This document shows, in pieces, positions 3,360 to 56,245 of a stretch of 64,000 nt of DNA. The stretch's first letter is position 1. Each line of letters starts with the position of its first letter. The position numbers and the translations under genes are program-made. The DNA is from Marsupella aquatica. Lineage: Eukaryota > Plantae > Marchantiophyta. The stretch spans positions 1,364,001-1,428,000 of the forward strand of contig OZ316896.1 in NCBI GenBank assembly GCA_973895155.1. The letters run 5' to 3'. The notes under the pieces were generated by a model that searched no databases, had not been told where the DNA came from, and was given only the letters and a program-made list of their open reading frames with translations.

Positions 3360-3461
3360 GTAGTCTTTATGAACTAGGGGATGTAAAGACCTCCTTCACA
3401 ACAGAGAGATTATTAGCAAACCAAAAAATTATCAAAAAAATTATCTAAAATGTGAGTTCAT

Positions 3462-5420: not shown

Positions 5421-6019
5421 GCGCGAGCTCCTTCTCTGGTCGCTCACCCTCTTATACAAAAGACGGAGGCGATCAGGCGATGCGTTCACCAGTGTCGGAG
5501 GATGCGACACACGTTGGTATGTCACAGTGTCGGGGATGCGACACGAGTCAGTATGTCACCGGTGTCGGGGATGCTATACAGGACGGATGTAGTTATGGCG
5601 CAACCTGGTTAGAGCCCAGAATGTAATATATTATCCTGCGCACTATTTCCGCGATTTATCCCGGATTCACCAGCCAAATTAAAATTTAGTCGTACTTTTG
5701 GTCAGTTTCCGAGATTTCATCCCCAGTATTTGGGTGCTTTTCAAAGAACCTGGATTTCACCTGGATCTCACCAGCCAAAGTAAATGTGTTCCTTACTTTT
5801 TTAATTTTTTTCTAATGTCTACTTTGATATAGCATGTTCATTTTCAAACATGCTTCATTTTTTGTTTTTTAGTGATACGTAAATGTTTTAATTAAAATAT
5901 AAACAAGACATTGACTAGGAAACCCTACAGTCTATGATATTGAAACTTGTGCACATAAGGTACAAGAGTAAAAGTACACTTGTAAAGAAACGTAATAACG
6001 AACAGGAAAAAAGTGTTGG

Positions 6020-21763: not shown

Positions 21764-22257
21764 ATGGTAATTTAGATGCTAATTTTTCATTCAAAACATT
21801 TCCTTGAGTACCCCTATGTCTATACAATACATGTGACATTCCATATAGTTCATGAAAAATATTACTTTGTCCATAGTAGTTGCAAGGTATTATAGTCCCT
21901 TTGTATTCCTCTATCCATAGTAGTTATGGTGTTTCTTATCTTTGCTTGTTACCCCTCTACACATAGAAGCCAGTCGGTTTCTTGACTTACCTTGGTAAAT
22001 GTTAGAGAATTTGAAAAGTTTCTTGGGGTTTTTCATGTAATTTTGGTAAATATTAGAAAAATTGAAGAGTTTCTTACTTGTCATTATTTCAAAAATGTGT
22101 AAATAGAAGAAATGGGTTTAACACTTTTAGAAGAAATGGGTTCTTTTTCCTTTCAAAAGTGCAGATGAAATAAATCCTTCATCTGCAGTTTTCTTGAAAT
22201 ATAATAACACTATGTACTCACAATTGTGAGCTACTCATTGGGCCTACTGTCTAGAAT

Positions 22258-22421
22258 GAAAGCCTTTAGACCATGGCTCAACTAGAGTGGAGACAGAAAC
22301 AGGGATGGGGTTGAAAGTCTTTAGACCATGACTCAGTTAGGGTGGAGACAGAAACAGGGATGGGGTTGAAAGTCTTTAGACCATGACTCAGTTAGGGTGG
22401 CGACAAAAACAGGGATGGGGT
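22258..22421. repeat. Minisatellite, 3 x 55 bp
   Basis: GAAAGTCTTTAGACCATGACTCAGTTAGGGTGGAGACAGAAACAGGGATGGGGTT-like units at 22258, 22313 and 22368. Confidence 0.9.
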
Positions 22422-25400
22422 AGACTCTGACTTTAGTGGCTTAGGAGAAAGTGCGGGCCCATATTCAAAGAAGAGGGGATGGGGCAAAAATGAACACAGA
22501 AGTAAGGAATTTTTTTTGCAAGGTGTAGTCACCTCTGTTCACTCAATCAGGCGAGTATGCTAAGTCTGTTTACAAAAAAAAGCCAAACGAAGTACAAAGA
22601 GGAAAAAGCAAAAATAATACAAACTCCAAACTCAAAAGAAGTGTGCAAAGGAAAACCCAGAAAATTTAGAAAAGAGAGAATAGAAGAAAATGGGAATTAA
22701 AGGATGAGCTAATCGTTCCATTAAGCTAGTTTGCGGTTACATTTACTGTTTAAATCTTATTTTAAAGCTTACAGGCAAGCCCTTTTCCCACAGACATTCT
22801 ACTGTCTACAGCCGATGGATTTTGCCTGAGGGGTAAGAAAACCTTAACAAACAAATAAAGATCTGATGTAACCACTTGGATAAAAGGCCTTCTGAATATA
22901 GAGTCTTTTCACTAGTAGACCATATATACTTTGTTTTTGCCCTGAAAAGACCATACCATATATACTTTTGACTTTATATCCCATTAGGGAATATCACATT
23001 GTTGTGCCAAAAATGCTGTGGTCATTCTAAATTTGGCTCATGTTGTTTGGGGTGGAAACAATGATAACTAAAAAAATGATAAATAAACCAATTGCAGGTG
23101 AATTATATTTAGTGAGCATTGTTGTCCAAGCAAGAAGTTTGAACCAATATTTTGAAGTTGCTATACTATATGGTGAATCCACCTTTCAGATTTTGTCTTA
23201 TACAGATTTTCAGTGTCATGTATTATTATTTCAATGTGCCTTATCAAGGGAGCCTTTGTATCATATACATTTTTAATTAATTTTTAGACCACTTCAATAT
23301 TAGGTATTTTAGAGTATTTTTAACTTATACTGGCAACCCACAATAACTTTCAAAGTTTGTGATCTCTTAGAGATGAAACCAAAGGTTCCACCACTTGAAC
23401 AAAGCATTCTCATGAGTGAGAGAAATGATTCTGTTCGACATGAACACATAGTAAGTTCCCCTCAAATCTTGCTTTCCTAAGTTTATGGTTTTTATTGATA
23501 TGAGTGTCATTCATAAGGCACAAATAGTAGCATGTGTCATAAAACTTGAATGTACTTTCATTGGTCACTTTGCTTTTCTTGGGTCACTGTGCCTTTCTTG
23601 GTAGACACTTTACTTACATTATTTTATTCTTCTAGTTATGTTCTCATATTTTATTTACTTTCAAATCACTATAAGACAAAAAATCAAACATGTTCTGACT
23701 AGGATGAGCGCTATATTGTCCAAGAAAAAAGTTTAACCAATCATGACTATATATCCAATAGTTATCTATCCATACACCTTATCTAAATTAAAGGTATGCC
23801 TCAGCTGCCCATTAGTCTGCCCTAACCTGCCCTAGAAAAATGGAATAAAATAATAGTTAAATGTATTTACATTTAAGTTATTGAAATTGAAATTGAAATA
23901 ATTTATATAGAAACTGTGAATTGTTTTAAAATATTGAGAGTGTTCATCATCTAAAATTGAACTTAAAGCCCTCATGGACACAGACCTTTGCAAAATTGCC
24001 CGGATAGACAGACACAACCTGCATGGACACAACCTAAACTTAGTTTTTTGCTTGAATAGCACGGAATCCATTTTCTGGCAAAAGTGACCTGTAACGAGTT
24101 TTATGACCGGGACCAGGAGGTTTTCCGTTGGTACTCTCGGTAGTCTGTCCATGACTCTGGTTTTCCTTCCTGCGACAACGGGCAGGGCTTCATTGGCCTT
24201 AAGTGCTCTAAGCTATGGGACATGTATACTAGGGTTCTTTCAATGTCTGTATTCAGCACCCTTCGCGTTATGAATGTTTGCAAATGTCTCTCTCTTCACG
24301 CTATGATTGTTTGCAAATGTCGAAGATGATGAATCGATTCTGTTGCTTCTCCTTGTGGTTTGTTTGCTCAAAATGCAAGACCTTTTCGCCCTCTGCGCAG
24401 CTGAACTCAGCTGCAGGTCATTGTACGTAGCTCCACGTCGCATTGCAAGTTCAAAGGTAATCACAGCTGCTGAAGTTCGAACCTGCTGTTTGCAGGTGAA
24501 TCTTGCAGCTCAATGTCGTAGCTCTATTTCGCAGCAGCTCAATCATGTTTGCAGCTTCATGTTCGCAGCTTCAGTTCAGCCGGGAGTCCAGCAGCTGATC
24601 GCCACACCTCATGTTAGCAACAGCTTCAGTTCAGCCGGGAGTTCAGCAGCTGATCGCCTCCAGCTGCAGTTCACATTTGGCCTGATGTCAATAATCGCAG
24701 CAATGCCCTGATGTCCACCTGATTTTGCTCCACAGCGCCTCATGTTAGCAGCCCTTGAATCGGAGCTTCAGTTCAGCCGAGAGTTCAGCAGCTCCACTAT
24801 GCAGTCGTTCACCAGCTCGATGCAGCGCGAATGAGTTTAGCACTTCAGCCATTTCAGCCGGGAAGTTCGCAGCTCATATTCGTAGCTGTTAATGTTCGCA
24901 GTGAACTGATTGATCCCATCGCCTCCAGCTGAAGTTTGCACCTGAGTACATTGCCTCCACCTAAGTTCGATCCTGACTGTATCACTTTGCTTCACTCGGG
25001 GGATAGCTTTGCAAGAGGTCGCTTCACCCAGGGAATACAATTTGGAGCCTAGTCTAATGCAGTGTGCCAATTCGCAAACTGGCACGTTCAATCAGGTAAG
25101 CGAAACCTCCACTTAAATTGCTTGCACCCTGTCTTGTACCTAAGCTTTGTAGTTTATGGGCTTTGAGTGTAACTATATGCTTACTTGAATGAATGGATTG
25201 TTGTTAAGGAGGTTCAGGTGACATCTGCCTTCTGAGATATACAAATTGTGCACCTTTTGACTTCATTCAACTTTGTTCGATCATCAGGTAATTGTCTGTG
25301 GACCAATATTGGTCTCTGCAATTTGTTTACTTGGATGAATTGCGAGGCGATTGAAAATGATATAAGTTTGTGTTGAATAGTATTAAAATTTGTAAGGTAT

Positions 25401-25438
25401 GTGCTTGCAGGGGTCGATTCATTCCATTGCTCACAGTC

Positions 25439-26056
25439 ATGGATGTTGGGCAGTCATCTCATGTAGTATGCTTTGATAGCGATCTTGAATCCATTTCTGA
25501 GTTCCTTGAAAAATGGAAGCCATCATCCATTCCCTTCAACTACATTGAATGGCTAACTGTTAGCACCCTTCACTCAAACAAGGAATTCGACTGCCTTGTC
25601 AATACAAAAGGGTTGGCTCTGGCTTGGGAATCATTGTGTCTTTCATCCCACGATAGGCTACACAACTCTCATATTGAAAGTCTAGCTATTGCCAATAATG
25701 TCCTGTCTGGAAAATGGATGATTTTTGTTGAACGCCATGCCGTAGACACCCAGTGGGCAGAAATTGTTGCTGCTATTGTGAAGGGTTCTTTGGCAACTGT
25801 TGCCAAGGTTTCCACCTGTCATACCAAACCTCTGAAGTCTGGGTTTCCCAAAGAGGAAAAGATCCCTCAAGGTCAACATGTCATTTGTGTGTGGTCTGAT
25901 AATTTCACCGACATTGAGGGTGTTTTTGGTCTAAGGGATCGCCTTCGGAGTTTAGGGTTTAATGATACTCTGTTTTATAAGCCTGACGCATACTCTGTTT
26001 GCGCGGTGTATGCAGGCAATAGGCTTGGCCTCTCGGCTGCTAAATACGCAGCGTGA
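25439..26056 (+). CDS. DUF1917 / UPF0696 (C11orf68/BLES03-like, eIF4E-like fold) protein, 205 aa, MULE cargo
   Basis: Uninterrupted ORF with family motifs SGKWMIF, VDTQWAEI, AKVST, HVICVWSDNFTD and LFYKPDAYS..VY.GN; a splice acceptor TTGCAG ends at 25410, just upstream. Confidence 0.85.
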   Translation: MDVGQSSHVVCFDSDLESISEFLEKWKPSSIPFNYIEWLTVSTLHSNKEFDCLVNTKGLALAWESLCLSSHDRLHNSHIESLAIANNVLSGKWMIFVERHAVDTQWAEIVAAIVKGSLATVAKVSTCHTKPLKSGFPKEEKIPQGQHVICVWSDNFTDIEGVFGLRDRLRSLGFNDTLFYKPDAYSVCAVYAGNRLGLSAAKYAA

Positions 26057-26159
26057 CATGGCCTCGGTTTTTTGGGCTCTAGTAGACATGATGCATTGTG
26101 CAATGTCTCCAATCTTTGCCTTCATTAGGTACCTTAGACTGCCTCCTCACAACCCCGCT

Positions 26160-26585
26160 ATGGATTCCACCAAACAGTCTGGTGTTCAGCTATATGCAAC
26201 CCTGGATGAGGTAGAGGGGCAGGGTGAAGCGGAGGGGATTGGGTGTACTTAGCGAACCCACCTCCTCCCTCCTTTGCCAAATGATGTAGTCCTCACCCAT
26301 ATTTGGCCTAGATTGTCAGTACCCTGCGAGGCACAGGACATAATGTCCGTTAGATGCATTAACACAGGCTGGAGACATGTGGTTGACTCATCAGATTATT
26401 AGAGGGCATTGGGGCCTGTACTATCAGGACCTGGTCTGCGTCCTAAATGGTGGCTTGCAGGATGGAGTTTAGATGTGATGTTGGAATTAGGGGTTGGGTA
26501 CCTTAGGCAAGATGACCATGTCATTGAACAAATCTTGCGCATTACCAATGATGAATGGAGTCACAATTTTGGCCCTGCTTTGTAG
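26160..26585 (+). pseudogene. Small F-box protein ORF (~141 aa) with two in-frame TAG stops, MULE cargo
   Basis: Read-through translation gives LLPPLPNDVVLTHIWPRL...IMSVRCINTGWRHVVDSSDY*RAL, matching the F-box consensus LP.E...I..RL...RCV.K.WR. Confidence 0.65.
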
Positions 26586-26816
26586 ACAGGTTTTAGTTCA
26601 CTTTTTTATTTATTATTGTAAGAACCTTACACTTATCATTATAGTACATTGTCATTTCCATCATGGATATTTTAATCCAAGTTGTTTTTGAAGGGCCCAT
26701 TGTAACTGCCCCTTGTTATGCACTCATATTCATTTACAAGTTGCATGTTCATGGACATAATAAGCCCATAAGGCACCCACTGAGCATGGTTGGTTTTGTA
26801 CATGATGCACTGTAGG

Positions 26817-27851
26817 ATGCCAAAACCTTGTCACAATCGCACTCGCATGATTGGCGTCCAGACATTGGATTCCATACTGGCTCATGGCCAAGACCTGCCG
26901 TATGGTGCACAGATTCAAGCACACGTCCGAACCAGATTGACTCACATCCTCCCTGTGCTAGGGTGTTTCACCTATTTGGGTTGCGGACAGAAGGTCCGTA
27001 ACTCAAGTAAGTTGTGCAAAAGATCTACGGCTCCATCACGATCATTGGACCTACATGGTGGCCAGAACCCCTCAAGTCACGATGGTCCATGTGACAACCA
27101 AAACACGGCAACTTGGTTCTGGCGGTTTCGGGTGGTCCTTATAGATGATGTACAGACCGTGGAGTGTGCAGTGACTGTGGGATGTTGGCAGTGACATCCT
27201 GAGGGTTGGACCCTCTTCATATAACGCTGTTGAGTTCTCTGTACTACCTTTTTTGGAGCAGCGGGACGTTCTTCGATCACGCATGCAGAACCTCCATGGC
27301 ACATACTTTATTTTTGACATAATATTTCAACGGCCTTCCGGGCAGTCGGGTGATCCAGCTTGGTACATTGTTGGCATGACCCTAACAAATGTATGCTCAT
27401 TTCATGCCACACCCTTGCCAATTCAAGACAGGTTGCCACTATGGGTTATGAATCTCACCCAACACCCACTTACTCCCCTGAGCACCACATCCGGTATGTT
27501 GGGGAGTGTGTTGCCGCTTCTTCATGCGAGGAGTATGGGAGTCCAGACTCACACAATATCATGAGACCAATCCCAGTCACATCCCCTGATTTGGAGTGTG
27601 AGGCTGATGATGGAGTAGATGGTTTGGATCATTCTTTGCATCGATTGGACATTGGAGTTGGTGGTCAATCTCCAACAAGTGATACATATGACTGCACTCA
27701 CCATAACCTACGCTCAGCATACCTGAGTCATCTAAGCAACTTGATTGAGAAGTGTGAGGACGAATTAGCAGCAAAGGAGGCAGAAGTTAGGCGATCAATA
27801 GACTATTTGGAAGAGTTGCGTTCTCAATACAACATGGTTAAGGATATGTAA
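26817..27851 (+). pseudogene. RPA70 C-terminal-like OB-fold protein with coiled-coil tail, frameshifted; MULE cargo
   Basis: FTYLGCGQKV...WRFRVVLIDD...ECAV, then (frameshift ~27175) WDVGSDILRV...LHGTYFIFDI...WYIVGM, resembling RPA1 DBD-C. A possible short GT-AG intron (27391-27431) joins in frame to a coiled-coil exon ending 27851. Confidence 0.5.
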
Positions 27852-28086
27852 CTGAAATCCATAAATTCCGGTAGTCCATATAGTCTGTAATTTTGGAATA
27901 CAAAGACAATAATCAACATTTGGGCACAAGTGAATCTTGTTCATGTAGCACCATATAGTCTTGTGCATGCTATGTCTGACCAACTCATGTAAAAAATCAC
28001 CCAAAACCCTAAACACTATACCCTACTTTGCTGTGTCTCCTCATGTACCATTGAGAAAAAGAAATTTTGGGTGCAGGCCGGGTATC

Positions 28087-30971
28087 TCAAATCATCCATT
28101 CAGCCTCAATCTTGTCCCTCTCCATGGTGTGGATGGAGCAAACCCTCAAAAAATCAGCAGACCTGTTCATGCGGACCTGTGCTCTTTGGTTCGGGACAAC
28201 ACATCCTCTACGATTATGGCCTGGTTTTCCACAAATACCACACTTTTGGTGTTGCTTGGCTGCAATGCGCTCTGAGGCAATGATGCGCTCAAACCTATAT
28301 ACAAACATTTCATAATTAGCATAGCTTGAATTTTTAACGTACATGAAGTTTATGAGCTTCATTTAGAACATAAATTACCTTGATTTCATTCGCTTCATTG
28401 ATGCAGACGCCTTCTTCTTGGATGCAACAACAAGAGGCTGAAGAGACTTTTCATCTTGCTGTAATCCATCTAATGAAATCGGGGGAAGACTGACTGTGTA
28501 AGCCAGTACCTGCAAACAAATTTTCCAAGTCAATGGAATGAATATCTCTGACATTGACAATGCAATTGAGATCAAGCGTGAACAAGTGGCTACTACCAAC
28601 TATCCCATACCCTACTAACCTGAGATTTGGCTTTCCAAATGTTGTCAATATATAATTTCTCATCCAATCCACGATTACGACAAAACTTCACTGCATGAAC
28701 ACATGGAAACCCCATCTCAACCCAATCTTTGCATTCACATTGTCTGGATTCCACATCTAGGGCCCATTGTCCTTGGGAATCACACATCAAAGCAGTTGTG
28801 GCTGATGATGGACGCTCATCCACCCCCCAGCTTTTGTGTACAATGTGTTCAGCATCCATGTTGCATGTTGAGTCAAGCTATTCTCACCTGCAGGCCAAGC
28901 TACAATATATGTACATTTGTACAAATTAATACTTATTGGCACAAAACTCGGCTGTCATGCAAGAATAAAATGTAAGTATTCAAAAGTTCAAATTCTTACT
29001 TGCTGCATCAACTGCTCTGCTGTAATGCTTGGTCATTGTGTAGTCCCACAGTTCCTTGCATATTAGCAATGCTGGCAATTTGCGAATAGGCTTAATTACT
29101 CCATTCAAAATCTCCACTACGTTTGAGGTAGTATGACCCCACCTACATACCAACATGTACAATAATGAAAACTCCAAAACAAAGAATATGATAGGGTTTA
29201 ATAACAAGCTGGAAATTGTGTAACTGGTGCTTTACCTTGGTACTGGAAAGGCATGACGTGAGTATAGTTTTGGGTCAATGGCTCGAATATATCTGATCCC
29301 AGCTTCCTGACGGTCGTTCAGTGGTTGGTACTCATCCAACATGCGATCAAATTCGGATTTGCGAACCTCACGGGCCAACTGATCAGTCAAAAGACATATG
29401 AGTGAAGTAACTATTAAACCAAGTCATACCAAGTGAATTTATGGTGGGCAAAAGATGACATTGCATGAAATTAATAAATGGGATCACATACCTTAAGAAA
29501 CCAGTCACCAAGTGCTTTGTCTGAGTTGGTTATTATATTTGCCCTAATATGTCGTGTGCAAAATGAGTGATGAATGTCACCCCAGATGGTTTGAACTGCT
29601 GGAATCAAGCCTTTATCACGGTCTGAAACAATGACAGTCTCCCTCTCCATCCTCATTCTAGGATAGGCTCGATCAAGATGAGCCATGAACCAAATCCAAT
29701 TTTCCTTCTTCTCAACCCCAACAACAGCCCATGCTAATAGCAAAATGTGATTGTTACAATCAAAGGTTGTAGCCAGCAATATAATCATGGGAAATTCGCC
29801 TCCTGTTGGAAGAGAGAGATATTAGTGATGCAACAGGTGCTTGCAGTGACAGTCAAGTAGAAATGAATTGAATGATATGGTATGAAATTTATCAAACCCT
29901 CTCGCTGGTTTTACCTATGTGTGTAGCATCCATCCCAACAAAAGGTCGTACATGAATGAAGGCATTTTGTGAAGATGTTGGTGCCATAAAAATTCTGCGA
30001 AATCGATTATCAGTTTCATATGTTTCATACAGTACGTGTGATCCAGGGTCGGTATGTTTCACTTTAGCCACATATGCTGGAATCATCTGGAAGGATGTGC
30101 CATGATCACCACCGAGCTTTCAGATGACTTTCCGCCGTGCTCGTTGTGCAGTCCACATAGTAGTATCAGCAGAATGGATATCACAAATGTGCCCTCTCAA
30201 GTCTTTATTGGATGTGTTTGGGTTAACCCAGATGCTCGACTATACCTTTTCCTCTACCCATCGTCTCTTATGAGCACCATGCCTCCACTTGTGCGACGAT
30301 TGTGAACAAGTGTGGATAAGGTAGCTTTTCTGTATGCAAACTCTGCCACTTTCTTTCATGTGCCTGACATAAAGTTCAGCTTTGCAAGAGTCTAAATCAT
30401 TCACATCAAACCCTCTGCACTTACCCATGAATCTGGTTTTATTCCTCGCTAATCTAGTGAAACTCCATCCTACTTTGGCCTCATATTCATCCAATGCTCT
30501 ATTAAATTCATTCCAAGTAACATACTGTTGCCCTTTGAGTAATTTCAGTTCGAGGTCAGATGGTCGATGATTGCTCACAAATCCTGCATGCCAATTCGCA
30601 GTCAGTCAACGTTAAAGGGAACTGAACCCAAAATAAATAAATATTGAGAAATGAATGAATTGGGGCACATGGTCTGTACCTGATTCAACTGGATCTAAGT
30701 CAGAGTGAAAGTCATCTTGGACAAGCTCACTGATATCAATATGTGGATTTTTCTCAGGGTTATCTCTCAATTCTGTATGGCCTTCAGAACATGATTTAGA
30801 ACCCAAGGTCCATTCAGTATAGTCATTGCCATCAAAAGTGGGCTCTGATTCTTCTTCGGTGTTGTTGTTGCTAGAATACCCAGAATCAGGGGTGTCATAG
30901 GATTGACATTCTAGCTCATGTTCGTCAGAAAATGGCCAAGATCCAGAACCAGAGATATGTTCAGGGTCCAT
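28087..30971 (-). pseudogene. MuDR-family DDE transposase (mudrA-like), multi-exon, with premature stops
   Basis: N-terminal Cys/His DNA-binding domain (GKC...CKAEL...HTC); catalytic GMDATH, VSDRDKGL, FCTRH and TTSNVVE; SWIM finger CECKDWVEMGFPCVH; knuckle CGICGKPGHNRRGC. In-frame stops at 30240-30242 (TAG) and 30120-30122 (TGA). The 5' start is uncertain. Confidence 0.92.
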
Positions 30972-32653
30972 GGTGTATGTCCCCCGCTTTAACTCCTGTG
31001 CATTATTCACAGTAGTTACAATCCTGGGAAATTGAACATCACGGATAACAAGTTTTGATTATGCATTCAATGTATGTAAGTTACATTTCGTATGTAGCTT
31101 GCAACGAATAGGATCACTGTTTTCAGCAACAAATGAAACATCTATAAAGTTTAAGTGTCCACTTGATGTCAAATCTTGCTTCACCCAAGAGTCGGACATG
31201 AATAGTCAATCAATTCTTGATGTTGATTCCAATATAACCTCCTTGCTGCCCTCGTTTGAGAACCCTCGTTTTGCAGCGCAGCCAGCCAGCTTCCGATTTT
31301 GCAGCGCAACGCAGTTTGCATAGCCTCAATCCCAGCACAACGTAGCCTGCCAACCTCAATCATGTTTCATAGTCATTCGCTGCGCAGCGCAGCCCGTGAA
31401 TCGAAGCCCCCTGAATCGCATCACAGCGCAACTGAGCTTTGCACAACCTCAATCTTGTTTTGCAGTGAAGCCAGACCCCCGATTAGCAGCGTAGCGCAGC
31501 GCAGTGTGCAAGCAAGCAAGCATAGCCTGAATCAAAGTGTGCAAGCAAGCAAGCATAGCCTGAATCAAAGTGCAGTGCACTTAGCCCCCCAAATCGCAGT
31601 GCAGCTAGCCCCAACCCTAAATTTTAGCGCAGCCAGTCTCCATGTCGTAGCGCAGGCAACCTTCATTTTTAAACACTTACCTTCTGGTTCTTGCTTACGA
31701 AGATGTAGGTTGAATCCAACATTCAATCTTACATTCTTACCTATATTTTCCTACATTCAATGTCGACGAGGGCATCTGCTTCCTTTGCCATATGCATGCT
31801 ATGATGCAAAGCTCTGGTTTTACTTCTCGTAGCAGAACCAGCTCAAAGCTCAACCCTAAACAGTACCGAGAGTTTGCGGGTTGCAAGAAGGATGGAAAAA
31901 CTTAGCACACACTACACCAACGTTAAGTCCTCCGGTCCCAGATTAAGTTCCGTTAATGAGAGACCGGTAATAGATTTTGCGTGTCAATGAAGGTAGTCGT
32001 GACACTGTAAATTCAGTGTGTCCATCCGGGTCGTCTCTGCAAACGTCTGTGTTGTCACACCATTCTGAGTAGTGTAGTAGTATATCGTGCTATTAGAGTA
32101 TGTACATTTGGTATGAGTGCTATTGGAGCCGATAAGGTTCCGTCAGGTTTGTGTGAGAGGGTACTTCTCACTTGTGGAGGCATTGAAAGGTCATCTTTCA
32201 ATGTTGAGCCTTGGAGAGAGAGGAGCTTGAGTGGCTATGGTGGCTGTGAGCTCCACTTGTGTAACGTGGATTCCTTGAGTAGTGCAAGGTGCGTTGGCTT
32301 GACATACGTGTGTGATCGGATCGGTGCGGGATTGATGGGGTATTGTTGACCGGGATCGTTGTGCCGATTGTATGGAGATTACATTGAAAGATCACATTCG
32401 AAATCTGTTGTACGGACTGTGTGGACAGAAGTTTGATTGATTGAGTTGTCAACGGTTCGTGGTAGCTCGGATCATGTGTTGTTATCGAACAGATCGTTGG
32501 TATCTTGACCTGTATCGTTGTTGTCCGATCGACCTGCTTCCCGATCGATGTACAGATCTGTGATTGGTGACAGGTTTTGAGTTGGAGGTTGATTGATGAT
32601 TCGTGGAGGAAAGCGAATGTTGAGTAGATGTTGGATAGTGGAAGTCGATCCGT

Positions 32654-32741
32654 GAGGCTTCAGATCCGATTGCCGGCTATTATGAGGCTTCAGATCTGAT
32701 TGTCGGCTACCGTGGGGCTTCAGATCTGATTGCCGGCTATT
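32654..32741. repeat. 3 x 30-bp repeat in the retroelement 5' non-coding region
   Basis: GAGGCTTCAGATC.GATTG.CGGCTA-like unit repeated at 30-bp spacing. Confidence 0.85.
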
Positions 32742-32979
32742 GTTGGACGATGTTGGCAAGGCGCAGGTGAAGCGATGGCTCTTTTCCTGAAGAAACGGAG
32801 CTGCCAATGCCCCATGCGACGGTATCATCGTTTCAGTGAAAGAAACGAGGGTCAAAGGTGTTGAATCAAGCTGCTGCCAATTCTGTGGAAGGGCTGCATT
32901 TTTCATGAAGGAAATCGACAGTTTTCGGGAGCTTTTCGTGAAGGAAGTAGTTGTTTTTGGGGTCAGGTGTGAGGCGCAC

Positions 32980-33160
32980 GAGGTCACCCATCCCGAAAGT
33001 GCTCCCAACCGCGAGCGTGAAGTCACCCATCGCAAGCGCAGGTAGGCGTGAGGTCAAGGTCACCCATCCCGGGGCTATTCCGGTCCGTGAGCGCAAGGGG
33101 AGGCACAAGGTCGAGCGCGAGGAGGTCACCCATCCCGGGGCTATTCCCGGCCGCGAGCGC
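32980..33160. repeat. GTCACCCATC motif repeats (4 copies) in the retroelement 5' region
   Basis: GGTCACCCATCCCG / GGGCTATTCC / CGCGAGCG blocks at ~32980, 33020, 33058 and 33122. Confidence 0.75.
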
Positions 33161-36100
33161 TTAACTGGCAAGTTCTCATCCCACCTTGTGTACACACAAG
33201 CTTTGACAACTTGTTGTTTAGATTCAAGCGCCAGGGGGCTTTATACACTTCCCGGTTTGTTTAGAGGCCTATTCTAGGCCAAATCAAAGGCTGTTCTAGG
33301 GTTTTTGATACTTTTGAGTCCATCTAGACTCACAGATTGAACCAATTTTGCCTTGGTTCTCATCTACAACATTGGAGTGCCATTGTGAAGCCTATTATGA
33401 AGGCTCTTCCTTGAATCTTATGCACATTGTCATATTGATTTGCATTTGCTTTTGTGTGGAGAGTTAAATGGTATCCATTCTTGTTTCTGGATCCTCTTCA
33501 CACATGTTTTCTGTTTATGCGCCATGTTAGTTTGGTGTGGGCGCTTGATTCCATAGGAGTGATCCGGGTTTGCAATTGGACATTCTAGTGTGCTGTGTAT
33601 TTCTCTCCTGGTGATGTTGGAGTGATGCCCAACACACCATGGTGAGTGCTTGTGGTGCTGACAGGGATAGATTGCCCTTAGGGTTAGCACATAGATTAGG
33701 TTAGGGTTGGTCACCATGGATTCTTCTGGTGCTGTTGGATTACCCGATGGACGATGGACCGGTTTCACTCGGAGTGGGGCACAGTTTCGGCCAGCGGTAT
33801 TGGTAGCAGTCAGCAGTGCAGCTTCAGATAGTGATTCCGACGAGGACTCAATGATCAGTTCTCCTCGTCATCAGGTGGTTGCACCCGTGTTGTGGGATAT
33901 GGACGAGATGTACGGGGCTACAAAGGGCCCACGACGATACTCTGGTGCAGTTGGCACAATTGATCTGGATGACTTCATCCAGGAGTTTGATACGTGGTGC
34001 GATATGCAGACATTGTGTAACGCCACGTTGTTTACCCCTTTCATGGCATGGAAGGGATTATTTCAGCATTTGGAGGGGCCACCCATGGATGACTATCATG
34101 AGTTTTGGAAGGCTCATTTGGTTGAGATTGAGGCATGGAGGCAGCATTGGTCATCTAATTACGTGTCCATCACCTATGGCACTAGTGCGGCTGCCCAACC
34201 CATTGCCACGGCTGCTGCCTCTTCTAGCAGCACTAGCCAGAGTGGCACACCATCCACCAACAGCACTCCAACAGCATCCACCGCTACTCCTGCCGGTGTG
34301 ATTGTGACAGGAACTGGAGTTGCACCAGCATTTAATCCTGTGGTGGAATTCTTTGATGTACTGAAGCAGAACTATCAGGGTGTGAGAACTGATAAGTTGA
34401 AGGGTCTCCAGGAGTTCCAGCGCAAAACTGGAGAGAGTCTACATGAGGCATACACTCGTATGCGCAGATTGATCACTATCACCAAGGGAGTGACAGAGGC
34501 TCAAGCAGTCCAGTTTTGGTATGCAATTTTGGATAGAGAATTGCGACGCAGAGTGAGAGATGTCACTCTGCTTAGGGATGCAGATCCCACATTAGTAGTT
34601 ATTTTCACCCTTTCTGAGCGCATTGAGCTCAATATGGTGAATGAGAAGGTGGTGATTTCTGGATTTGCCAAGGAAGCACCAAAGGCTGCATCTACATCCA
34701 CACCACAACCTACTGCACGGAAGAGCCAGAGGGAGAAGCCTACTGCACGAGAGTCTACCAGCCAGAGACCTGTGCCCTCTTATGCTGGACAACAGTCAGG
34801 ATGTTGGACCTGTGGTGGGGATCATGCATAGAGAGATTGCCCAGATCATAGAGGATCAGGGGGAGCATCAGCGCCTGATCAGCGACAGTGTGATCATTGT
34901 GGAGCTCCTGGACACACCAAGGATAGGTGTTTCTCACTCCACCCTGAGTTACGGAGGGGAGGATCCCGTACACATGATCAGGGAAGAGGAGGAGGAGGTA
35001 GAGGTGGTGGACGTGGTCGTGGCATGCCACATGCAGGGAGACAGGGAGGTGACGCTGCCCCTGCTGTAACCATAGATCCAAAGCATGCTAAGATTGCTCA
35101 ATTGGAGCAACAGCTAGCTGCCATGGCTAGTTCCCAGGTGAGACCTACTTCGGGTGATGGGGCATCTACATCCTATGGACCTTCCACATCCCATGGTCCT
35201 TCCACATCCTATGGAGCTGATGGAGATCTTGCCACCATGGGATTCATGTGTGGCACTGCACATATTGATGCATCAGCAGCTTTGACACGTGGGGCAGCCA
35301 AAGCTCTTGAGCCTCGAGGAGCAGTAGTGGAGTTAGATCCACAGAGGGGGGATGCACGTCGGTAGACAAAGCTTCCTTAGTCTTTTACATTGTCAGAGAC
35401 AGTTCAGACTGCCTCTATGAACCCGGTTCGGACAAACCCTGGCGTGGGTAAGTTGGCAGAATCCGGTAGTGATATAGTAGGGATGATAGGTACCCTACTG
35501 GGGGTGGCTACTGCCATAGTACGCACCCCAATATTTTCAGCGACAGACATGTTGAACTTGGGAGTTGGTCCTGCAAAAGTGTTCAGATTGGCAGCTACAC
35601 TCTGTGAGGACACTCCAGTTGTTGCTTCCCATGCAAAAGCAGCTTGTAGTGTTGAAGCAGTGAAGACCATACCACCTACTGCTACTAGTGAGACATGGCA
35701 TGCAGCAGCAGCGAGGTTGGTGGATTTACCAGCACGCCCTGCATTTGAGAGGACTAGGTTTAAACCTAGTGTTGTGTCATTGGATAATCGGAGTGGTATC
35801 TTCCGATTAGTTGGGCCTTCTGGAGCAATATACCAGTCAGAGAGAGTGTTACTGGATACTGGTGCTCAGCCCTTGATGTTGGGGAAGTCTGCCATACGTG
35901 GATTGGGATTGCGTCCAGAGGATTTGGAGGATTGTCCCTTTCCCATTCAGACTTCATTGGGGGGACCTACACCTACACAGCATATCACCAGGAGACCACT
36001 TGATTTGAGGATTCAGGAAGGTCATACCACAGATAGCTCACAGATACAGGCGCGAGCTATTCTGACTAAGGTAGAGTCATATGATGTGTTGGTGGGATGT

Positions 36101-36562
36101 ACAGTGCTCTACCCCATGGGATTTATTCTTGATTTTTGGGAGGAATCAGTGTCATATAGACCTGATTGGCAGTCAGGAGATGCTCGATTGAGCAAATTGC
36201 CAGTGAGATTTAGTGGACCTGTGGGAGGCCCTAAATCTACACTATTGTCTTTGGCAGCATTTAGTGGTGTAATTGCTGGACCTGATGATTTGATTGAGGG
36301 TAATGCGCATGCAGCCGATGTTCCACCATTGGAGGAGTCTCATGAGGAGCACATCATGCGAGGATTACCTATTGGCAGTGTTGTGCCACCAGTGTGGGGC
36401 ACTACACAGGCCTTGCCACAGGCAGCAGCACGATTGGTACATGATGCATGGCGTCATGCTTTTACACCACAGTCAGGAGCAGAGCAGTCTCTTGCAGATG
36501 GACTTGTGACTCTTTCACCATTGGATACCACTCCTATTGCTTGGCAATATCCACCGGAGGGT

Positions 36563-37513
36563 ATTTGTTTGTTGGATCTTTTTGGTGGGATTAGCACTGG
36601 ATTGGCTGCTGTTCTTCAGGCAGGAATTCCTGTGCGTCGTTATTTGTATGTGGAGACAGATGAGACAGCACGGAGGGTCTCATTGCGACATGTGGCTATG
36701 TTGGTGGATAGATATCCACAGTTGCTGCCAGTGGATGCTGTTCGTGGTTATCAGCATGCACTACCTGCTGATATTTCATTGTTGGGGGCGGATCATCTAC
36801 ATCGTGTTGGCCCCATTGATTTGGTGATTGCTGGTTGGCCATGTTAGGGCCAATCTAGAGCTGGCATTGGGCATGGACTTCATGATCCACGCTCTGCATT
36901 GTTTTGGGAGATGTTACGAGTGCTGCATCATCTCCAACTACATCAGACACAGTCTCCAGCATACATTTTGGAGAATGTGCCATTGTTAGGTGATGATCGT
37001 AGTCGGATTGTTGCCAGTGTTCACCAGGTGAGGTCTTGGATTGGACCTACTATGTTATTGGATGCTGCACGTGTGGGTTCTCGTGCACATCGTTCACGCT
37101 TGTGGTGGACTAATTTGATCCCATGTGAGGTGCTGAAGCGCGCATTTGACAGCATTCTATGCTCACCAGCCTTAGTGGTGGATGATATTTTGGATCCAGG
37201 GCGTCGTGCACAGGGTGTGACCCAACCTGATAGATCTCCATTGGCAATGGTCAATGCAGTTGGGTGCCCACGTTGTGCATTACCCACTCTTGTAAGCCAC
37301 TCTACTTCATATGCATTCAGAGCAGGTGGCCCTGGACTTGTGTGGGACACAGCTCTCCAGCAGTTACTGGAGCCTACTGCTGATGAGAGAGAGCGTGCTA
37401 TGAGATTTTTGACTGGCACCACTGTAGTTGCCTCTATGTCAAAGGGTTTGCGGCGCCAGGTTCTTGGTCAAGCAATGGACCTGAATTGTTTGACTTGGAT
37501 TATCAGCTTGGGA
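36563..37513 (+). other. C5 cytosine DNA methyltransferase domain (DNMT3-like) within pol
   Basis: Motif I LDLFGGISTG; II YLYVE; III ADI; IV GPIDLVIAGWPC*G; VI YILENV; VIII LDAARVGSRAHRSRLWWTNL; IX ERERAMRF; X RRQVLGQAM. Canonical motif order, in frame with protease and the start of RT. Confidence 0.93.
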
Positions 37514-40500
37514 GTAGCTGAACAGTTGCGGATGCGTTCTGCTGGAATTACTGATTGTCCCTTGGTGAGCTTGCGGTCCACTGAGACAGTATTGACCACA
37601 ACTGGGGGCGAGCAGATAGTCCATGGACCTATGACAGGATTGGCCAAGGCTGGACAGATTGTTGAGCAGGAAGGGACTGCTCAATCTACTGCTAAATAGC
37701 AATCATTGGCTATCTCTTCTACCCTACAAAGAGATATTAGGGATTTGGTGGAGAGTTGGGAACCACAGCTTGGCCCTAAGTTAACAGGGGAGGAGAGACG
37801 TCGCATGCATCGATTCCTGAAGAGTTATTGGAATTGTTTTGCATTCAACATGAAGGATTTGGGGACATTGAAGGGCCCTGGTATTCAGATTGAATTGGCT
37901 AGTGATGCGCCAATCTTTCATAGACCATACCGTTATATGACATGGAGAGAGCTCTGATTCAAAGCAGAACTCAAGATTTGTTGGAGGCTGGATTGGTGGA
38001 GATTTCATATGGGGAGTATGCATCTGCCACAGTGATGCCAGCCAAGAAGGATGTGCATGGCAATTACACAGATAGGCGCATGTGTGGTGATTATAGACCT
38101 ATTAATCGCCAGATAAAATTTGATCGATATGCCATGCCCACACCTGAGAAGATCTTTGATGCTGTGGGGCATGCAAAGGTTTTCAGTTCATTGGATCTGA
38201 GGGCAGGGTACCATCAGCTTCCAATTAGGCATGCTGACAGGTCCAAGACAGCATTCTGGGGGATTGATTCTTATGGCAAAGATCGTTTGTATCAGTGGTT
38301 ATTCTTACCATTTGGGTTGAAGAATGCACCAGCTGAGTTCCAGAGAGTCATGGATCGAATCCTTGCAGGTTTGGATTTTGTCAGATGTTATATTGATGAT
38401 ATTTTGATCTATTCTTCTACTGTGGAAGAACATCAGCAGCACTTGCAGATTTTGATGGAGAGATTGAGAGCACATGGGTTGAAGCTCCATCCTGGCAAGT
38501 GTAAGTTCTTCCAAGACCAGATTGAGTATTTGGGCCACACTATATACCCAGGGGGATTGGGTGTACAGCAGACTAAAGTGGAGGCCATTACACAGATTCC
38601 TTGTCCTACTGATGTAAGTAGAGTTCGTGCATTCTTGGGATTGGCGAGCTACTACAGGAGGTATGTTAAAGGATTTAGCCAGCTTGCTAAACCTTTGACC
38701 ATATTCACTAAGTTGGATCAGGAATGGATTTGGGGTGATGACCAGGAGCATGCCTTTCAGGAGTTGAAGCAAAGGTTGGCATCATCCCCTATTTTGAGAA
38801 GACCCATTTCAGGCAGACCATTTCAGCTACACACTGATTGGAGTGGAGTAGGACTTGGAGCAGTGCTGACTCAGAAGGATGATGAGGGGAATGAGTTTGT
38901 TGTGGCTTATGCCAATAGATCAAACAATTCAGCAGAGGCTAAGTATAGCTCTTATGAGGGAGAGTGTTTGGCAGCAGTGTGGGCTGTTGCACACTTTCGT
39001 TGCTACTTGTTTGGTAACCCCTTCACCTTGATCACTGATCATCAACCTCTTAAGTGGTTAATGGAGTCTGACAAGCTTACAGGGAAGCTTGCACGATGGG
39101 CATTGTTGTTACAGGAGTATGATTTCCAGGTGGTGCATAGGCCTGGAAAAGTGAACTTGGATGCAGATGGATTAAGCCGCAATCCATGTACCAGTCAGCA
39201 AGATGAGACTGGAGCTAGATGGCATGATGAGTCAGATAAGGAGATGGTGCCAGGATGGCATGCATCTGCCTTTCTTTGTTGGGTGTCGGCATACAATGGA
39301 TCTGTGGACTCTACCTCATTGGATGGAGTGGATGATGAGTCTTTAGATGTGGATGTTGGTGAGGTAACTTCTGGACAGCAAGATATTCACAATGATGTGA
39401 GAGTGTTGGAATATCTGCGCAGTAGTTCTATTGTTGGCAGTGTTGATGCCAAGGAACGTGACAGGGTTCTACAGAGAGCCAAGAGGTTTCGATGGGAGGG
39501 AAACCATCTTTTGAGAGTACTGCATGATGGTAGAGTGTTGATGGTCCCAAAACCATCACAGAGAGTACATTTGGTGCGACATGCGCACGAGGAGTTGGGT
39601 CACTTTGGTGTGAAGCGCACTTACAACTTGCTGCAGACACAGTATTGGTGGCGTGGTATGCACAATCATGTCCAGCAGTTGATAGCTAAGTGTGTGGTAT
39701 GTGATAGAGTGAGAGCATCATGCTCCCACTCCCCAGTTGCACCTGTTACCGATCATGGGTTTGGGATATCGTTGGAGTTTGGATTTTGCTGGTCCATTAC
39801 CTCTTACCCAACGCCATAATCGGTATGTTTTGGTCATGGTGGAACACTTCTCCAAGTGGATTGAGCTAGTGGCATTGCCAAATAAAGCCAGTGGAGGAGT
39901 TGCTGCTACATTTTTGGATCGTGTACTCAGTCATTTTGGAGCACCAGCTGAGGTGTTGACTGATCAGGGAACTGAGTTCCGTGGAGAGTTTGAGAGTTTG
40001 TGTGAACAAGCTCTGATTGATCATCATACTACCTCTCGTGATCATCCTGAGGCAGATGGATTAGCTGAGAGAGTTGTGCAAACTGTGAAGAGAGGATTGC
40101 GTAAGTATGGCTTGCAGGTTGGTCATCTGGGAGTGGGATCTCCAGCTACCTTGGTTAGCTATGGGCTACCGTTTCAGTCGGCAAGCATCACTTGCATCCT
40201 TCTCACCTTACTTTTTGCTCTATGGTAGAGAGCCAGATTTGCCAGCAGCTATTCGTCGTGATGTTGCATCAGTTGTGAACTTGGATGATCCTGATGTTTG
40301 GGTCAAGGTGTGTTCATAGAGAGCATGGGTATTTCAACGAGTGATGCCCATGGCTTTCGACAACCTTGCCATTGCCCAACATCGTGATACTTTGAGGTAT
40401 GCCACTATTCGTGGAGGAGGTTACCGTGCAAGCATTCGGCGATTTCATCCTGGTGATTATATTTTTTTGCAGCAGACAGCACCCACGACACTTGATGTGA

Positions 40501-40676
40501 CCGCAGGCCGGACAATCTTACGTGTGCGTGAAGTGTTGCCTTCTGGTGTCCTGATGTTGGAGGGACGCGATGGTATGGTTTGGAAGGATCATGTGCGCAA
40601 TTGTGCACCATGTCACCTTCCCAACATTGATGGTACAGTAGATCCAAGCTTGGCACATGTTCGTGCTGGCTTGAAA

Positions 40677-40811
40677 TGTATGTTGTGTGGATCTGCTCAG
40701 GGAGCAGCTACTATGTTGATTTGTGATAAGTGTTCTAGAGGATGACACATGTCATGTTTGACACCACCATTGCAGGTGATTCCTAGTGGATCATGGTTGT
40801 GTCCTCAGTGT
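40677..40811 (+). other. PHD finger (C4HC3) at the integrase C-terminus
   Basis: CMLC...MLICDKCSRG*HMSCLTPPLQVIPSGSWLCPQC; the stop (TGA at 40743) replaces the conserved aromatic residue before H. Confidence 0.92.
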
Positions 40812-40980
40812 CGATGAAGCCGACTAGTTATCATTTGTGTTCTCTTGGCAGATATGAATTGCAGGTAGGTGATCGATGGGGCTCACTTGCACCCGGCCTC
40901 CTGATCTTCACACCTAAAAAGGTGTATATCAACCTTGTAGAACTCATGGCTAGCTAGAGTTAGGGGACCTTACTCCCAGC

Positions 40981-40992
40981 TAGGGGGGCGAT
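40981..40992 (+). promoter_or_regulatory. Polypurine tract of the retrotransposon
   Basis: TAGGGGGGCGAT immediately followed by TGT (40993), downstream of the pol stop codon. Confidence 0.65.
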
Positions 40993-42594
40993 TGTGGTTT
41001 TTGGACATGTGTGGACATGAGTTCCACTTGTATTCCATTCTCTTGTGTTTGTGATGTGGCAGTGTGACTATGTCTGGATGTATGTGACAAGCGATGTATG
41101 TTGTGTAGCGATATGTATGCGCACGACAGTGTCCATCTAGGTTTTAAGTTCTCTAAAATTCAAAACTGAAAAATTTCATGTCACTTGGTTGTGCTCTGAT
41201 TCTATGATGTGGTGACCATTATCTTGATCAATTAAATGGATTAAAAATGATAAAGTTAATTAAAAAATCATTCTCATTTTGTTTTACTTTGGTGGTGGTT
41301 GTCGCCTCTCTTTGACAATTAAAAACTTTATCTCATTTGTTGTACTTTGGTGGTGGTTATTGCCTCTCTTTGTGTCATGACATTTTTCACTTGACTACTG
41401 TAGTTTCTTTTTATGCAATGAGATCTTTCTAACAAAGATACCTTTTGCACCATGATATTTTTTCAAGTGCATCTTTAACACAACATTATTTATTAAGCAT
41501 TGACCTCTTTTGCCAAACAATATATTAGTATATTCTAGTGAAGTACACCTTTTGCACAATGACATATTTCAGTTAAGGACATCTTTTGGGAACATCTTTT
41601 TTAACAATCTTAAATGCAATGACATATTTGCAACATACGAGGATTGAGCTAGTGTTAATACGATGACATGGCTGATGGTTTTTTAAATCATTTAATTAAT
41701 ATTCAAAGAATATGCTTTGAGGCTCGTACATATAATAGCAATTGTGTGAGGAGATAATGCACAGAGAGAGTAATGCTGTCTAATTCTCGGGTGGGGCCGG
41801 ACATACAGAGGCTGGTACACAATTTGTGTGGTTTTGCACCAGTTCGGTTGAGGCAGACTCTCTGGTGATTGGCACCTCCATAATAGCCATGAATCGAGTC
41901 AAACACTAACGCGAAAGACCATACGTGACGGGAACTTTTCCCCAACATTTAAAATATGACCAACGGATAAGAACTTGACAATGTGCCACTTGATATGTTG
42001 GTGCTCATATCATAAAGTCTAAAGGAAAGTGCTCTCGATCATTTGGCGTCAGTCCTCCTGTTCATGTCACTAAGACTGGTTTGCGAAATGCAGGTGATGT
42101 AATACTTACGCGGAACAGAATGATGGCGAACTAGAAATTGAAAAGAAGCCAATAGGCTGATTCGAGTAATCCCCCACAAATTCGTCACTTTTGCACCTGG
42201 TCTTAACCCACGACATGGAATCTAACTGAGCTTCGAAATGTTCCTTCCTTACTAATTGGACAACAGTGCAGAAAGGGATCCACAATGCTGGACACTGATC
42301 GATGTTCATAAGGGAAGAAAGTAGAACCTCATTAAATATATCAAATCAAACAATATAATAAGGAATGGTGCCCTTTTCGTCGTCGTAAGAAACTGCATTG
42401 ATGTTTGGAAGAATCAACGGCATTTGCAAGCTTTTATAAGTTACTGCAATCTTTAAGGTCAATCATTGAATGGTTATGGTGCTTGCAATATATAAGAATG
42501 CAGATAAGTTCGATAGGTTCGGGAACACAACAGGCACGAGTACAGGATTTCACGAAAACAGCTTGTAGCTGGTGACAGGCGAAGGCCGGAAGTC

Positions 42595-54748: not shown

Positions 54749-56245
54749 GAGTGGTGGACCTTGCCACCCAGCGCCCTCACCAATCCCAGCACTCACGCCT
54801 AAGTGCCCCTGGTGCTCGAATGCCTCCACGGAATATCTTGAGCAAGCATCCTAGTGCCTCTTACACCACCAGCGGCCCCTCCCATACGAAGCCGCACTTG
54901 CTCACCTACACGACCGCTACTCAACGGTCCTCACTGTCTGCACAAGCAACCAAGCACCTCGGTAAGTAACCCTTCAGGACCTAGAACTCGCCAAGTCTAG
55001 CATCCTAACTCAAGCTCAACAGACAATGGTAAATAGGTCAGTGATAGGTCCTCCCGATGCCATAAGCTGGAACCAGAACCCACGCCCATTGTTCGTCCAG
55101 AAACAGCTCCTTCCATGGGTGCGGCCCGGGTTCCCCCTCGTACCTATCCATCACCAGTTGACCACCCTGATCTCAGGACGTACTCATGGCCCAAATAGCG
55201 TAGCTTGTCCCAAACCTGTCCCAAGCTTGTCCCAACACGCCGAGACCAGAATGGCCCCGAGTCTAGCAACCAACTCCCGATTCGCCTCACTAATGGCCTA
55301 GGGACCGAGCACTCTTGGAACTCAACATCCACACCTACTTGGCCTTGCCTCCCCAACACAAGCTCCCACGAGAGACTGAACGCGGCTTGGCTGCTATTCG
55401 GTAGGATTTGGCAAGCGGGTGAGTTAACACCAGCAAACCCTGAGAACCCATGGTGCCCCAGACCCAGCTGAGCTCAGGAGGGCATAGCCCTCCTCAAGAG
55501 CTTTCTAACGCACCCAAGAAGTCCTCCAACGGACTTCCCGTTGGGAAGATATCGTTGCTTCCGTTTGGCGGATTCCCTTAGTGTCGCGACCGCCGCGTCT
55601 CATGACTTCGGCTTGCCCTTAGCCCCCAGGGAGACACCACTCCCCTCATATATGCTTCTGGAGACCTGCCACCCCTGGACCAACTTTGGTCCCTAAACAT
55701 TTTGCCTCCAACCTAGATCCTATCGCGCATAATGGTCGCGCCACCAACTGGCAACGCCCATAACTCTCTCGTTAGGCATCCGCAAGCGGAGTGCCTTAGC
55801 CCGTTGTGATCGGGACGACCCAGTGCTCATGCCTAGGTCCTCAGGTCTCATCGCCGCTCTAGGCCCCCGATCGGCCCAACCCGGATCGGGCCATAACTTG
55901 CGCCCCAAGCGTTCGTTGCCCATGACGTCAACTCCATGGGCCTTGGGCCCAAGAGGAGCTCACCCTCAAGCCCTCAAAACTCAAAGTCCATCTGGAGGTC
56001 CGGACAGTCGTCCTTGAGCCCGGCCCATTTCCCCTTCACCCGACCAGCTCTCAGCTAGCCCAAGTCCTTAGTGTGTGTCACCAGCTTGGCTCCTTACCTT
56101 CGCTAGTGGCACTTCTCTTCGCTCACCAGTCTCCCCATGCTAAGTCCTCCCCGGATGGCCTATCCGGGCCTGGACCATAAGGGAGCTCGACGTCGGAGTC
56201 AGTGACGCCGGAGCTAAGTATTAAGATAGTCGAGTTCCGCGACTC
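54749..56245. mobile_element. ~1.5-kb interspersed repeat, copy 2 (putative non-autonomous PIF/Harbinger-like element)
   Basis: Imperfect 15-bp TIR GAGTGGTGGACCTTG versus reverse-complemented GAGTCGCGGAACTCG (11/15); TTA on both flanks (54746-54748, 56246-56248); homologous to 20281-21763. Confidence 0.8.

Follow-up and report, generated by a model that had tools for sequence, protein, structure and literature searches.

The window, by which we mean the whole 64-kb stretch of DNA analysed here, contains a Ty3/gypsy retroelement with a DNMT3-like cytosine methyltransferase (DNMT) ahead of its reverse transcriptase (RT) and a PHD finger at the end of its coding part. Domains follow one another in the order gag, protease (PR), DNMT, RT, RNase H (RH), integrase (IN) and PHD, and the features at and beside the element are as follows.

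About 28.1-31.0 kb, minus strand: decayed Mutator transposase (MULE, SWIM and zinc-knuckle parts; PF10551, E 9.5e-14) of a low-copy family
32053..41128, plus strand: whole Ty3/gypsy element, 9,076 bp, in A-coding-B form, with TG..CA ends and contig depth stepping up and down at both ends
32053..32380, plus strand: 5' terminal repeat A, its end approximate (joints 32371/32380->40991 are A joined to B in other copies)
33716..35362, plus strand: Gag-like region with zinc-knuckle-like CCHC motifs, 40-57% to the gag of most relatives
35381..36550, plus strand: aspartic protease region (LDTG motif) and linker, with an Asp_protease_2 match in full-length relatives
36551..37540, plus strand: DNMT3-like C5 cytosine methyltransferase (PF00145, E 4.6e-9; motifs I, IV (PC), VI (ENV) and VIII present)
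37697..37705, plus strand: conserved in-frame stop, TAG-CAA-TCA, dividing Gag-PR-DNMT from RT-RH-IN-PHD
37924..39200, plus strand: RT and RNase H (PF00078, E 8.5e-34; PF17917, E 3.2e-36), with a frameshift near 37937
39370..40660, plus strand: integrase, with H2C2 zinc domain (PF17921), rve core (PF00665) and C-terminal beta-rich domain
40677..40817, plus strand: PHD finger (C4HC3; Pfam PF00628), broken by a TGA at 40743
40980..40991, plus strand: polypurine tract, the same motif preceding B in relatives
40992..41128, plus strand: 3' terminal repeat B (TG..CA), from end and joint comparison with relatives

We found the Ty3/gypsy domain order together with a DDE integrase, and an unrearranged DNMT3-like domain inside pol whose best PDB matches were DNMT3A (E 2e-13), DNMT3B and DNMT3C, far ahead of DRM2; these features place the element with the described Gypsy-DNMT3 (KnitGypsy-Dnmt3) elements. 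A Pfam search of the Gag-like region gave no match. This copy is dead: it carries stops of its own in or after the Gag-like region (34829, 35363 and 35378, at each of which 13 of 15 relatives read open across the gag-protease junction), a stop at 36845 that breaks the DNMT directly after its catalytic Cys, the frameshift near 37937, integrase lesions (frameshifts near 39719 and 40133 and a stop at 40317) and the TGA at 40743.

Split repeats, abundance and insertion site

Self-comparison of the 64-kb window revealed no LTR pair, because the family has DIRS-like split direct repeats. We gathered 80 related loci using an integrase alignment that contained neither PHD nor DNMT; 11 of them end at a contig edge. 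The family's repeat plan is A-coding-B-A-B, every repeat being TG..CA. At the 3' end, 14 of these loci had B-A-B, 23 a single B and 6 a partial end, with no 3' end seen in the other 37, and both B-A and A-B junctions were present in contigs of near-identical genomes. The window copy keeps only A and B, its A-B presumably having been lost by recombination between two B repeats. It is flanked by a 4-bp target duplication, GTGT (32049-32052 and 41129-41132), and such duplications match in 6 of the 9 loci with both ends. Each split repeat runs from TG to CA in three loci (L005, L061 and L071) and the window, and about 2 extra bases at the B-A junction resemble a two-end circle junction. With split repeats in place of an LTR pair, such elements would likely be missed by LTR-pair finders.

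The family is clearly abundant by summed contig depth, a measure that is no copy number: the coding part reached 56,000-103,000 in run X1 against 61-74 for the neighbouring gene, and 22,000-38,000 against 57-99 in run X3, with the DNMT and PHD bins as deep as RT. Named protein matches came from Marchantia polymorpha (79-82%), Calypogeia, Sphagnum, Klebsormidium, Chromochloris and Coleochaete. Two family members (P0362 and P0435) are deposited under the bacterial MAG names of a cyanobacterium and a betaproteobacterium, and are likely mis-binned plant DNA.

The initial annotation placed the element inside another transposon, a claim that the surroundings do not bear out. About 1.1 kb to the left sits the Mutator transposase, at 5-10 times gene depth, and the kilobase between it and the element has single-copy depth in contigs. 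Self-comparison of the 64-kb window found no TIR pair around the element or the MULE, there was no empty-site joint among the contig joints listed, and we therefore set a nested insertion aside as unsupported. To the right, about 45 bp of unique sequence precede a dispersed repeat (41174-41514), which is non-coding, reaches up to about 150 times single-copy depth and has an internal 57-bp duplication. A host gene starts near 42.6 kb, about 1.5 kb from the element, and the neighbouring PQQ-propeller gene shares 75% identity with a protein of Calypogeia fissa, 58% with one of Riccia and 55% with one of Sphagnum, which makes a leafy liverwort the likely host. Elsewhere, the window holds two copies of a 1.5-kb sequence that are 89% alike and 34.5 kb apart (20282-21763 and 54750-56245), a duplicated amino-acid transporter gene (1389-3152 and 13598-15715, about 71% alike, with an Aa_trans match on the first copy) and about six tandem units of 345-377 bp (3450-5430).

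Steering into heterochromatin, which had also been proposed, fits the relatives better than the window copy. The 38 distinct junction flanks of relatives (moss-type host) had a CpG o/e of 0.29 and a CHG o/e of 0.36, and near flanks were more depleted than far ones (12 of 14 pairs for CpG, p 0.025; 10 of 14 for CHG, p 0.07), a depletion that has no genome-wide control and that purging or post-insertion methylation spread would equally yield. These flanks look long-methylated, and 6 of the 99 open frames in their 177 kb had Pfam matches, three to RT/RNase H, a count with no genome background. The window copy, on the other hand, sits close to a host gene, and its left flank, with a CpG o/e of 0.63-0.84 against 0.26-0.52 in the MULE, is not depleted.

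The PHD finger and its putative ligand

All eight C4HC3 ligands of the finger are in place (40677, 40686, 40722, 40731, His 40746, 40755, 40800 and 40809) in a reading frame interrupted by the TGA at 40743 and closed by another at 40815. When the broken codon is read as X, the Pfam PHD match has an E value of 1.3e-11 and covers profile positions 1-47 of 47, at 44.8 bits against a cut-off of 24. The finger and the C-terminal region of the integrase (40161-40814) share one frame, and no domain of the coding part follows the finger, in agreement with the initial annotation of a terminal C4HC3 PHD; its fixed integrase C-terminal place across the clade likewise bears out the comparison with the position at which chromoviruses carry a chromodomain. 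Among the relatives, two Haematococcus gene models (P0129 and P0146) have a PHD behind a Tf2-type SH3 integrase tail, though these models fuse two elements and may be an annotation artefact.

A protein query that itself contained the PHD matched 125 proteins over the PHD-containing region at E 1e-10 or better, with PF00628 in 109 of the 120 listed, and these matches argue that the PHD is not there by chance. With the query free of PHD and DNMT, the finger was found in 64 of the 69 loci that have sequence beyond the integrase. Pooled pairwise dN/dS between subfamilies was 0.26 for the PHD, 0.22 for the DNMT, 0.16 for the IN C-terminus and 0.10 for the IN core, and the window against the loci gave 0.33, 0.20, 0.15 and 0.09, respectively, all from pairs that are not independent and with dS near saturation. 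Among close copies the dN/dS of the PHD was 0.88, as expected from decay after insertion. These patterns indicate a family-wide PHD under purifying selection. Matches in ESM Atlas were unnamed PHD clusters of Streptophyta and Chlorophyta only, and an AlphaFold2 model of an intact relative (P0001) had a mean pLDDT of 80, rising to about 86-92 over the finger; the modelled fold matches the foamy-virus (PFV) and Ty3 integrases, with a predicted strand-rich domain ahead of the PHD.

The best 60 of 90 PDB matches to the finger included CHD4/5, DPF2/3, ATXR5, KMT2C/D, KDM5 PHD1, PHF12, PHF21A, KAT6, UHRF1/2, BAZ2, AIRE, ORC1B and TRIM24, and none of those 60 was ING, BPTF or TAF3. We counted residues in 16 hand-picked near relatives, excluding proteins outside the strict pattern. 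The position two before the His, which we take from ING-type fingers to be the cage-forming one, is Gly in the window and in 16/16 near relatives, leaving no aromatic cage and excluding, on sequence, K4me3 reading. The text of a study of KDM5A PHD1 gives L309, P331, G333 and W335 as the contacts of H3 A1, D312 as that of R2, and E305, L308 and main-chain atoms near D292 as those of K4 (bioRxiv 10.1101/715474). The PxGxW pocket is kept in the window and in 14 of the 16 near relatives, and the R2-binding Asp after Cys3 in the window and in 15 of the 16. Putative binding to the H3 N-terminus is thus likely, and with the cage absent and the A1/R2 contacts kept, so is a nucleosome tether. A canonical histone H3 N-terminus was also seen on 16 viral-collection contigs (L081-L096), which may be host contamination.

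The acids of the K4 pocket tell a different story. At the positions of KDM5A E305/D306 they are found in 0/16 near relatives and not in the window, and an acid before Cys1 is present in 2/16 near relatives and not in the window (against 24/25 and 44/74 in more distant groups), the near clade's PHD being basic and without an acidic groove. Each of the substitutions D292A and E305A weakened KDM5A binding about 6-fold (bioRxiv 10.1101/715474), so the H3 affinity of the near clade may be low. Of the initial annotation's claim that the PHD reads H3K4me0, then, the missing K4me3 cage and the kept A1/R2 contacts speak for one part, but selectivity for K4me0 appears least well founded in the window's own subclade.

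The conserved stop and the pairing of PHD and DNMT

The in-frame stop between DNMT and RT is followed by CAR-YY at the same site in 26 of 36 loci, drawn from four subfamilies although most belong to one family, as well as in the window. By comparison, control windows gave this pattern in 12 of 657 cases and lesion stops in 3 of 873, and we rejected decay as the origin of the stop at 37697. Exact CAR-YYA occurs in the window and 4 loci and CAR-YY(C/T) in 22 more, and CARYYA follows 0/873 lesion stops. The window's TAG-CAA-TCA agrees with UAG-CAR-YYA, which the text of PMC3542737 gives as the consensus for type I readthrough; the largest subfamily has CAA-CCC, with the last base off. Cluster members share fixed RT-RH-IN-PHD ORF lengths, and the stop is missing in several distant relatives (P0018, P0126 and P0132). 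We infer that the stop at 37697 is read through; terms for readthrough motifs had no match in PMC5829715.

Reader and writer had been described as parts of one polyprotein of one retroelement, and both do lie in one element, but the stop sets DNMT and IN-PHD in consecutive in-frame ORFs. Separated in this way, the two are unlikely to act as a single reader-writer enzyme. With the stop in place, writer and reader would be expected in unequal amounts, and the question of what a DNMT does in a retrotransposon becomes sharper.

PHD and DNMT occurred together in 27 of the 34 loci that allow both slots to be scored; the other 7 are truncated or deleted copies. Of 49 DNMT proteins, 44 carry the PHD, most having come from the PHD-containing query; among new proteins from an RT-IN query, 10 of the 15 with a DNMT do. 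An RT-RH tree (FastTree; 123 rows, each with a single full RT-RH, after exclusion of multi-RT and partial rows) placed the window in a 31-row group with the DNMT before RT, and its 22-row sister clade has the DNMT between RH and IN, directly before IN-PHD in one ORF. A 6-row subgroup that includes Closterium is without the PHD, a DNMT being seen in 5 of the 6, and in all 5 DNMT proteins lack the PHD. In six distant gypsy proteins (P0164, P0197, P0223, P0155, P0157 and P0201) the PHD lies between RH and IN, and three of the six also have a deoxynucleoside kinase; two of the six span protease to integrase in full and have no DNMT. We did not count one locus (L056) as a DNMT-less lineage, its 1.3-kb gap relative to L066 being that of one decayed copy. 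The co-occurrence that the initial annotation put forward as a check was found in most loci, alongside lineages that have one domain only. Mostly paired yet each occurring alone, PHD and DNMT appear co-inherited but separable, in a relation that seems to be neither independence nor obligate coupling; that they stay together though the DNMT has two positions could mean real coupling.

The catalytic motif in the DNMT domains of P0040-P0183 is mostly W-E-C-Q (29/47) rather than P-C, which the window keeps. Tails of at least 280 residues follow the PHD in 40 relatives, and the seven tails listed (P0145, P0092, P0137, P0044, P0099, P0114 and P0183) all have an amino-methyltransferase-like pattern, DPFxGxG and mostly TSPP-F/W, with a weak PF02086 match in two of the seven. 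Such tailed ORFs likely combine DNMT, PHD and an N6A/N4C methylase, an EpiLTR-like set with the PHD replacing the chromodomain.

An ADD consists of a GATA-like finger and a PHD that adjoin the catalytic domain in one chain. The initial annotation had the element rebuild this logic of animal DNMT3, its PHD reading H3K4me0, steering integration into heterochromatin and acting coupled to the DNMT. The likeness lies in a DNMT3-type catalytic domain and a cage-less PHD-class finger within one genetic unit, and the frequent co-occurrence, the depleted flanks of relatives and the one-ORF arrangement of the sister clade would all suit such coupling. The element differs in having a simple C4HC3 PHD, with no Pfam match to an ADD domain in the element, and in the conserved stop and RT-RH that lie between the domains, by which, in contrast to an ADD, the writer would sit on another chain than the reader and be made in another amount. 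The loss of the K4-pocket acids in the clade and the single-domain lineages also argue against it, as does the position of the window copy, and the flank signal may stem from purging or from methylation spread after insertion. We regard ADD-like coupling as unlikely and the DNMT3-like reading of PHD and DNMT as weak; the stop, the missing acids and the separable lineages all speak against a rebuilt DNMT3.

A probable integrase tether and its parallels in known systems

We lean, with some reservation, towards a reading in which the PHD tethers the integrase to nucleosomes via the free H3 N-terminus, and the DNMT, encoded in an upstream ORF of its own, methylates the element's cDNA. Leaky readthrough would give abundant Gag-PR-DNMT and scarce RT-RH-IN-PHD. 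The products would be cut further by the element protease, which would then release IN-PHD. The PHD at the integrase end would dock the integration complex on nucleosomes via H3 A1/R2, leaving a modest insertion bias away from H3K4me3 promoters, and the DNMT would act on its own, without PHD control, the two forming an old toolkit that is usually co-inherited and separable.

That the finger instead contacts a different host protein, DNA or its own integrase, in a structural or multimerisation role, seems to us distinctly improbable. The basic PHD of the near clade and a conserved Cys/His motif that precedes the finger in 72 of 134 integrase C-termini (strict pattern) would agree with such a role, but the conserved Asp and PxGxW both serve H3 binding in KDM5A, the nearest solved relatives are H3 readers and PHD-less lineages keep intact ORFs. 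An action after integration or on expression, such as holding element proteins on the chromatin of existing copies or altering silencing, would find parallels in PHDs that other retroelements carry at non-integrase positions (the six distant proteins, with theirs between RH and IN, and Penelope and CR1), but we think it very improbable given the fixed integrase C-terminal place, which parallels chromodomains, and the scarcity of the PHD that readthrough would cause. The chromovirus-like tether is thus the most likely reading, and DNMT3-like coupling a less likely one.

A wider scenario built on this tether is possible though doubtful: an old green-plant clade of split-repeat gypsies may package a Gag-level DNMT3 that methylates its own cDNA, its scarce readthrough PHD integrase may avoid H3K4me3, and one sister clade may have moved the DNMT beside IN-PHD and added an amino-methyltransferase, making a true one-chain reader-writer. 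If true, this would be the first shown case of integration guided by a PHD, and bryophytes would have in it a large source of de novo methylation that has gone unrecognised. PHD-guided transposon insertion has long been guessed, with no test in the literature covered, and the family offers natural contrasts (with and without the PHD, with and without the acidic pocket, and DNMT before RT or before IN). Its close copies in Marchantia polymorpha make the question testable.

The closest known system is KnitGypsy-Dnmt3, which shares Gypsy domains, a DNMT3-like domain before RT and DIRS-like split repeats in the text of its description (PMC5890265; the name is also used in bioRxiv 10.64898/2026.05.21.726589). 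One Pol ORF is described there (PMC5890265) against the stop-split one here, and the present host is likely a land plant in which the family is very abundant. Klebsormidium is represented among our sequences by P0119, which falls in the 54-row RT group but on a long branch (support 87, FastTree), and by P0021, which carries IN-PHD. The Klebsormidium DNMT had no activity in yeast, a result called inconclusive by its authors (PMC5890265). The term PHD is absent from the text and three supplement files of that paper, whose Fig. 4c and supplementary figures, outside this scope, may show one. The pairing of a PHD-tipped integrase with Gypsy-DNMT3 is probably unreported, as we did not find it in the literature texts searched, a scope that leaves aside figures, subscription papers and Repbase.

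Selgy and Phygy, as treated in the text of PMC6317226, are also non-chromovirus gypsies of early land plants, but were chosen for paired LTRs at 95% or more, with no methyltransferase mentioned. The initial annotation credited that paper (Neumann 2019) with PHD-tailed Selgy integrases, yet PHD occurs 0 times in its text and five supplement files. Phygy is described as preferring NCGN targets (PMC6317226), and NCGN was found in 0/39 target 4-mers here, a set that includes some duplicated sites and in which CpG decay could hide a few. Land-plant DNMT3s carry DUF3444 according to the text of PMC6453930.

PHD-bearing gypsies and reader-plus-methylase elements are already in print. PHDs are described in retroelements that include Penelope and CR1 (PMC6673714, PMC8557442, PMC9940879, bioRxiv 2021.11.30.470311), and the Chlamydomonas elements Gypsy-7a_cRei and REM1 likewise have a PHD in a gypsy Gag-Pol, but between RH and INT, with LTRs and no DNMT reported in the text (PMC9940879). 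Intergenic insertions of these Chlamydomonas gypsies are given as 2.6 times above chance, with targeting or selection suggested (PMC9940879). EpiLTRs, in the text of bioRxiv 10.64898/2026.05.21.726589, resemble the present family in joining a histone reader and DNA methyltransferases in one LTR element, but with a chromodomain, DAM and a DNMT4-related enzyme where we found a PHD and a DNMT3-like domain. Chromoviruses such as MAGGY share a histone-reader domain after the integrase C-terminal domain and its likely targeting role, with a chromodomain and paired LTRs in place of the PHD and split repeats described here.
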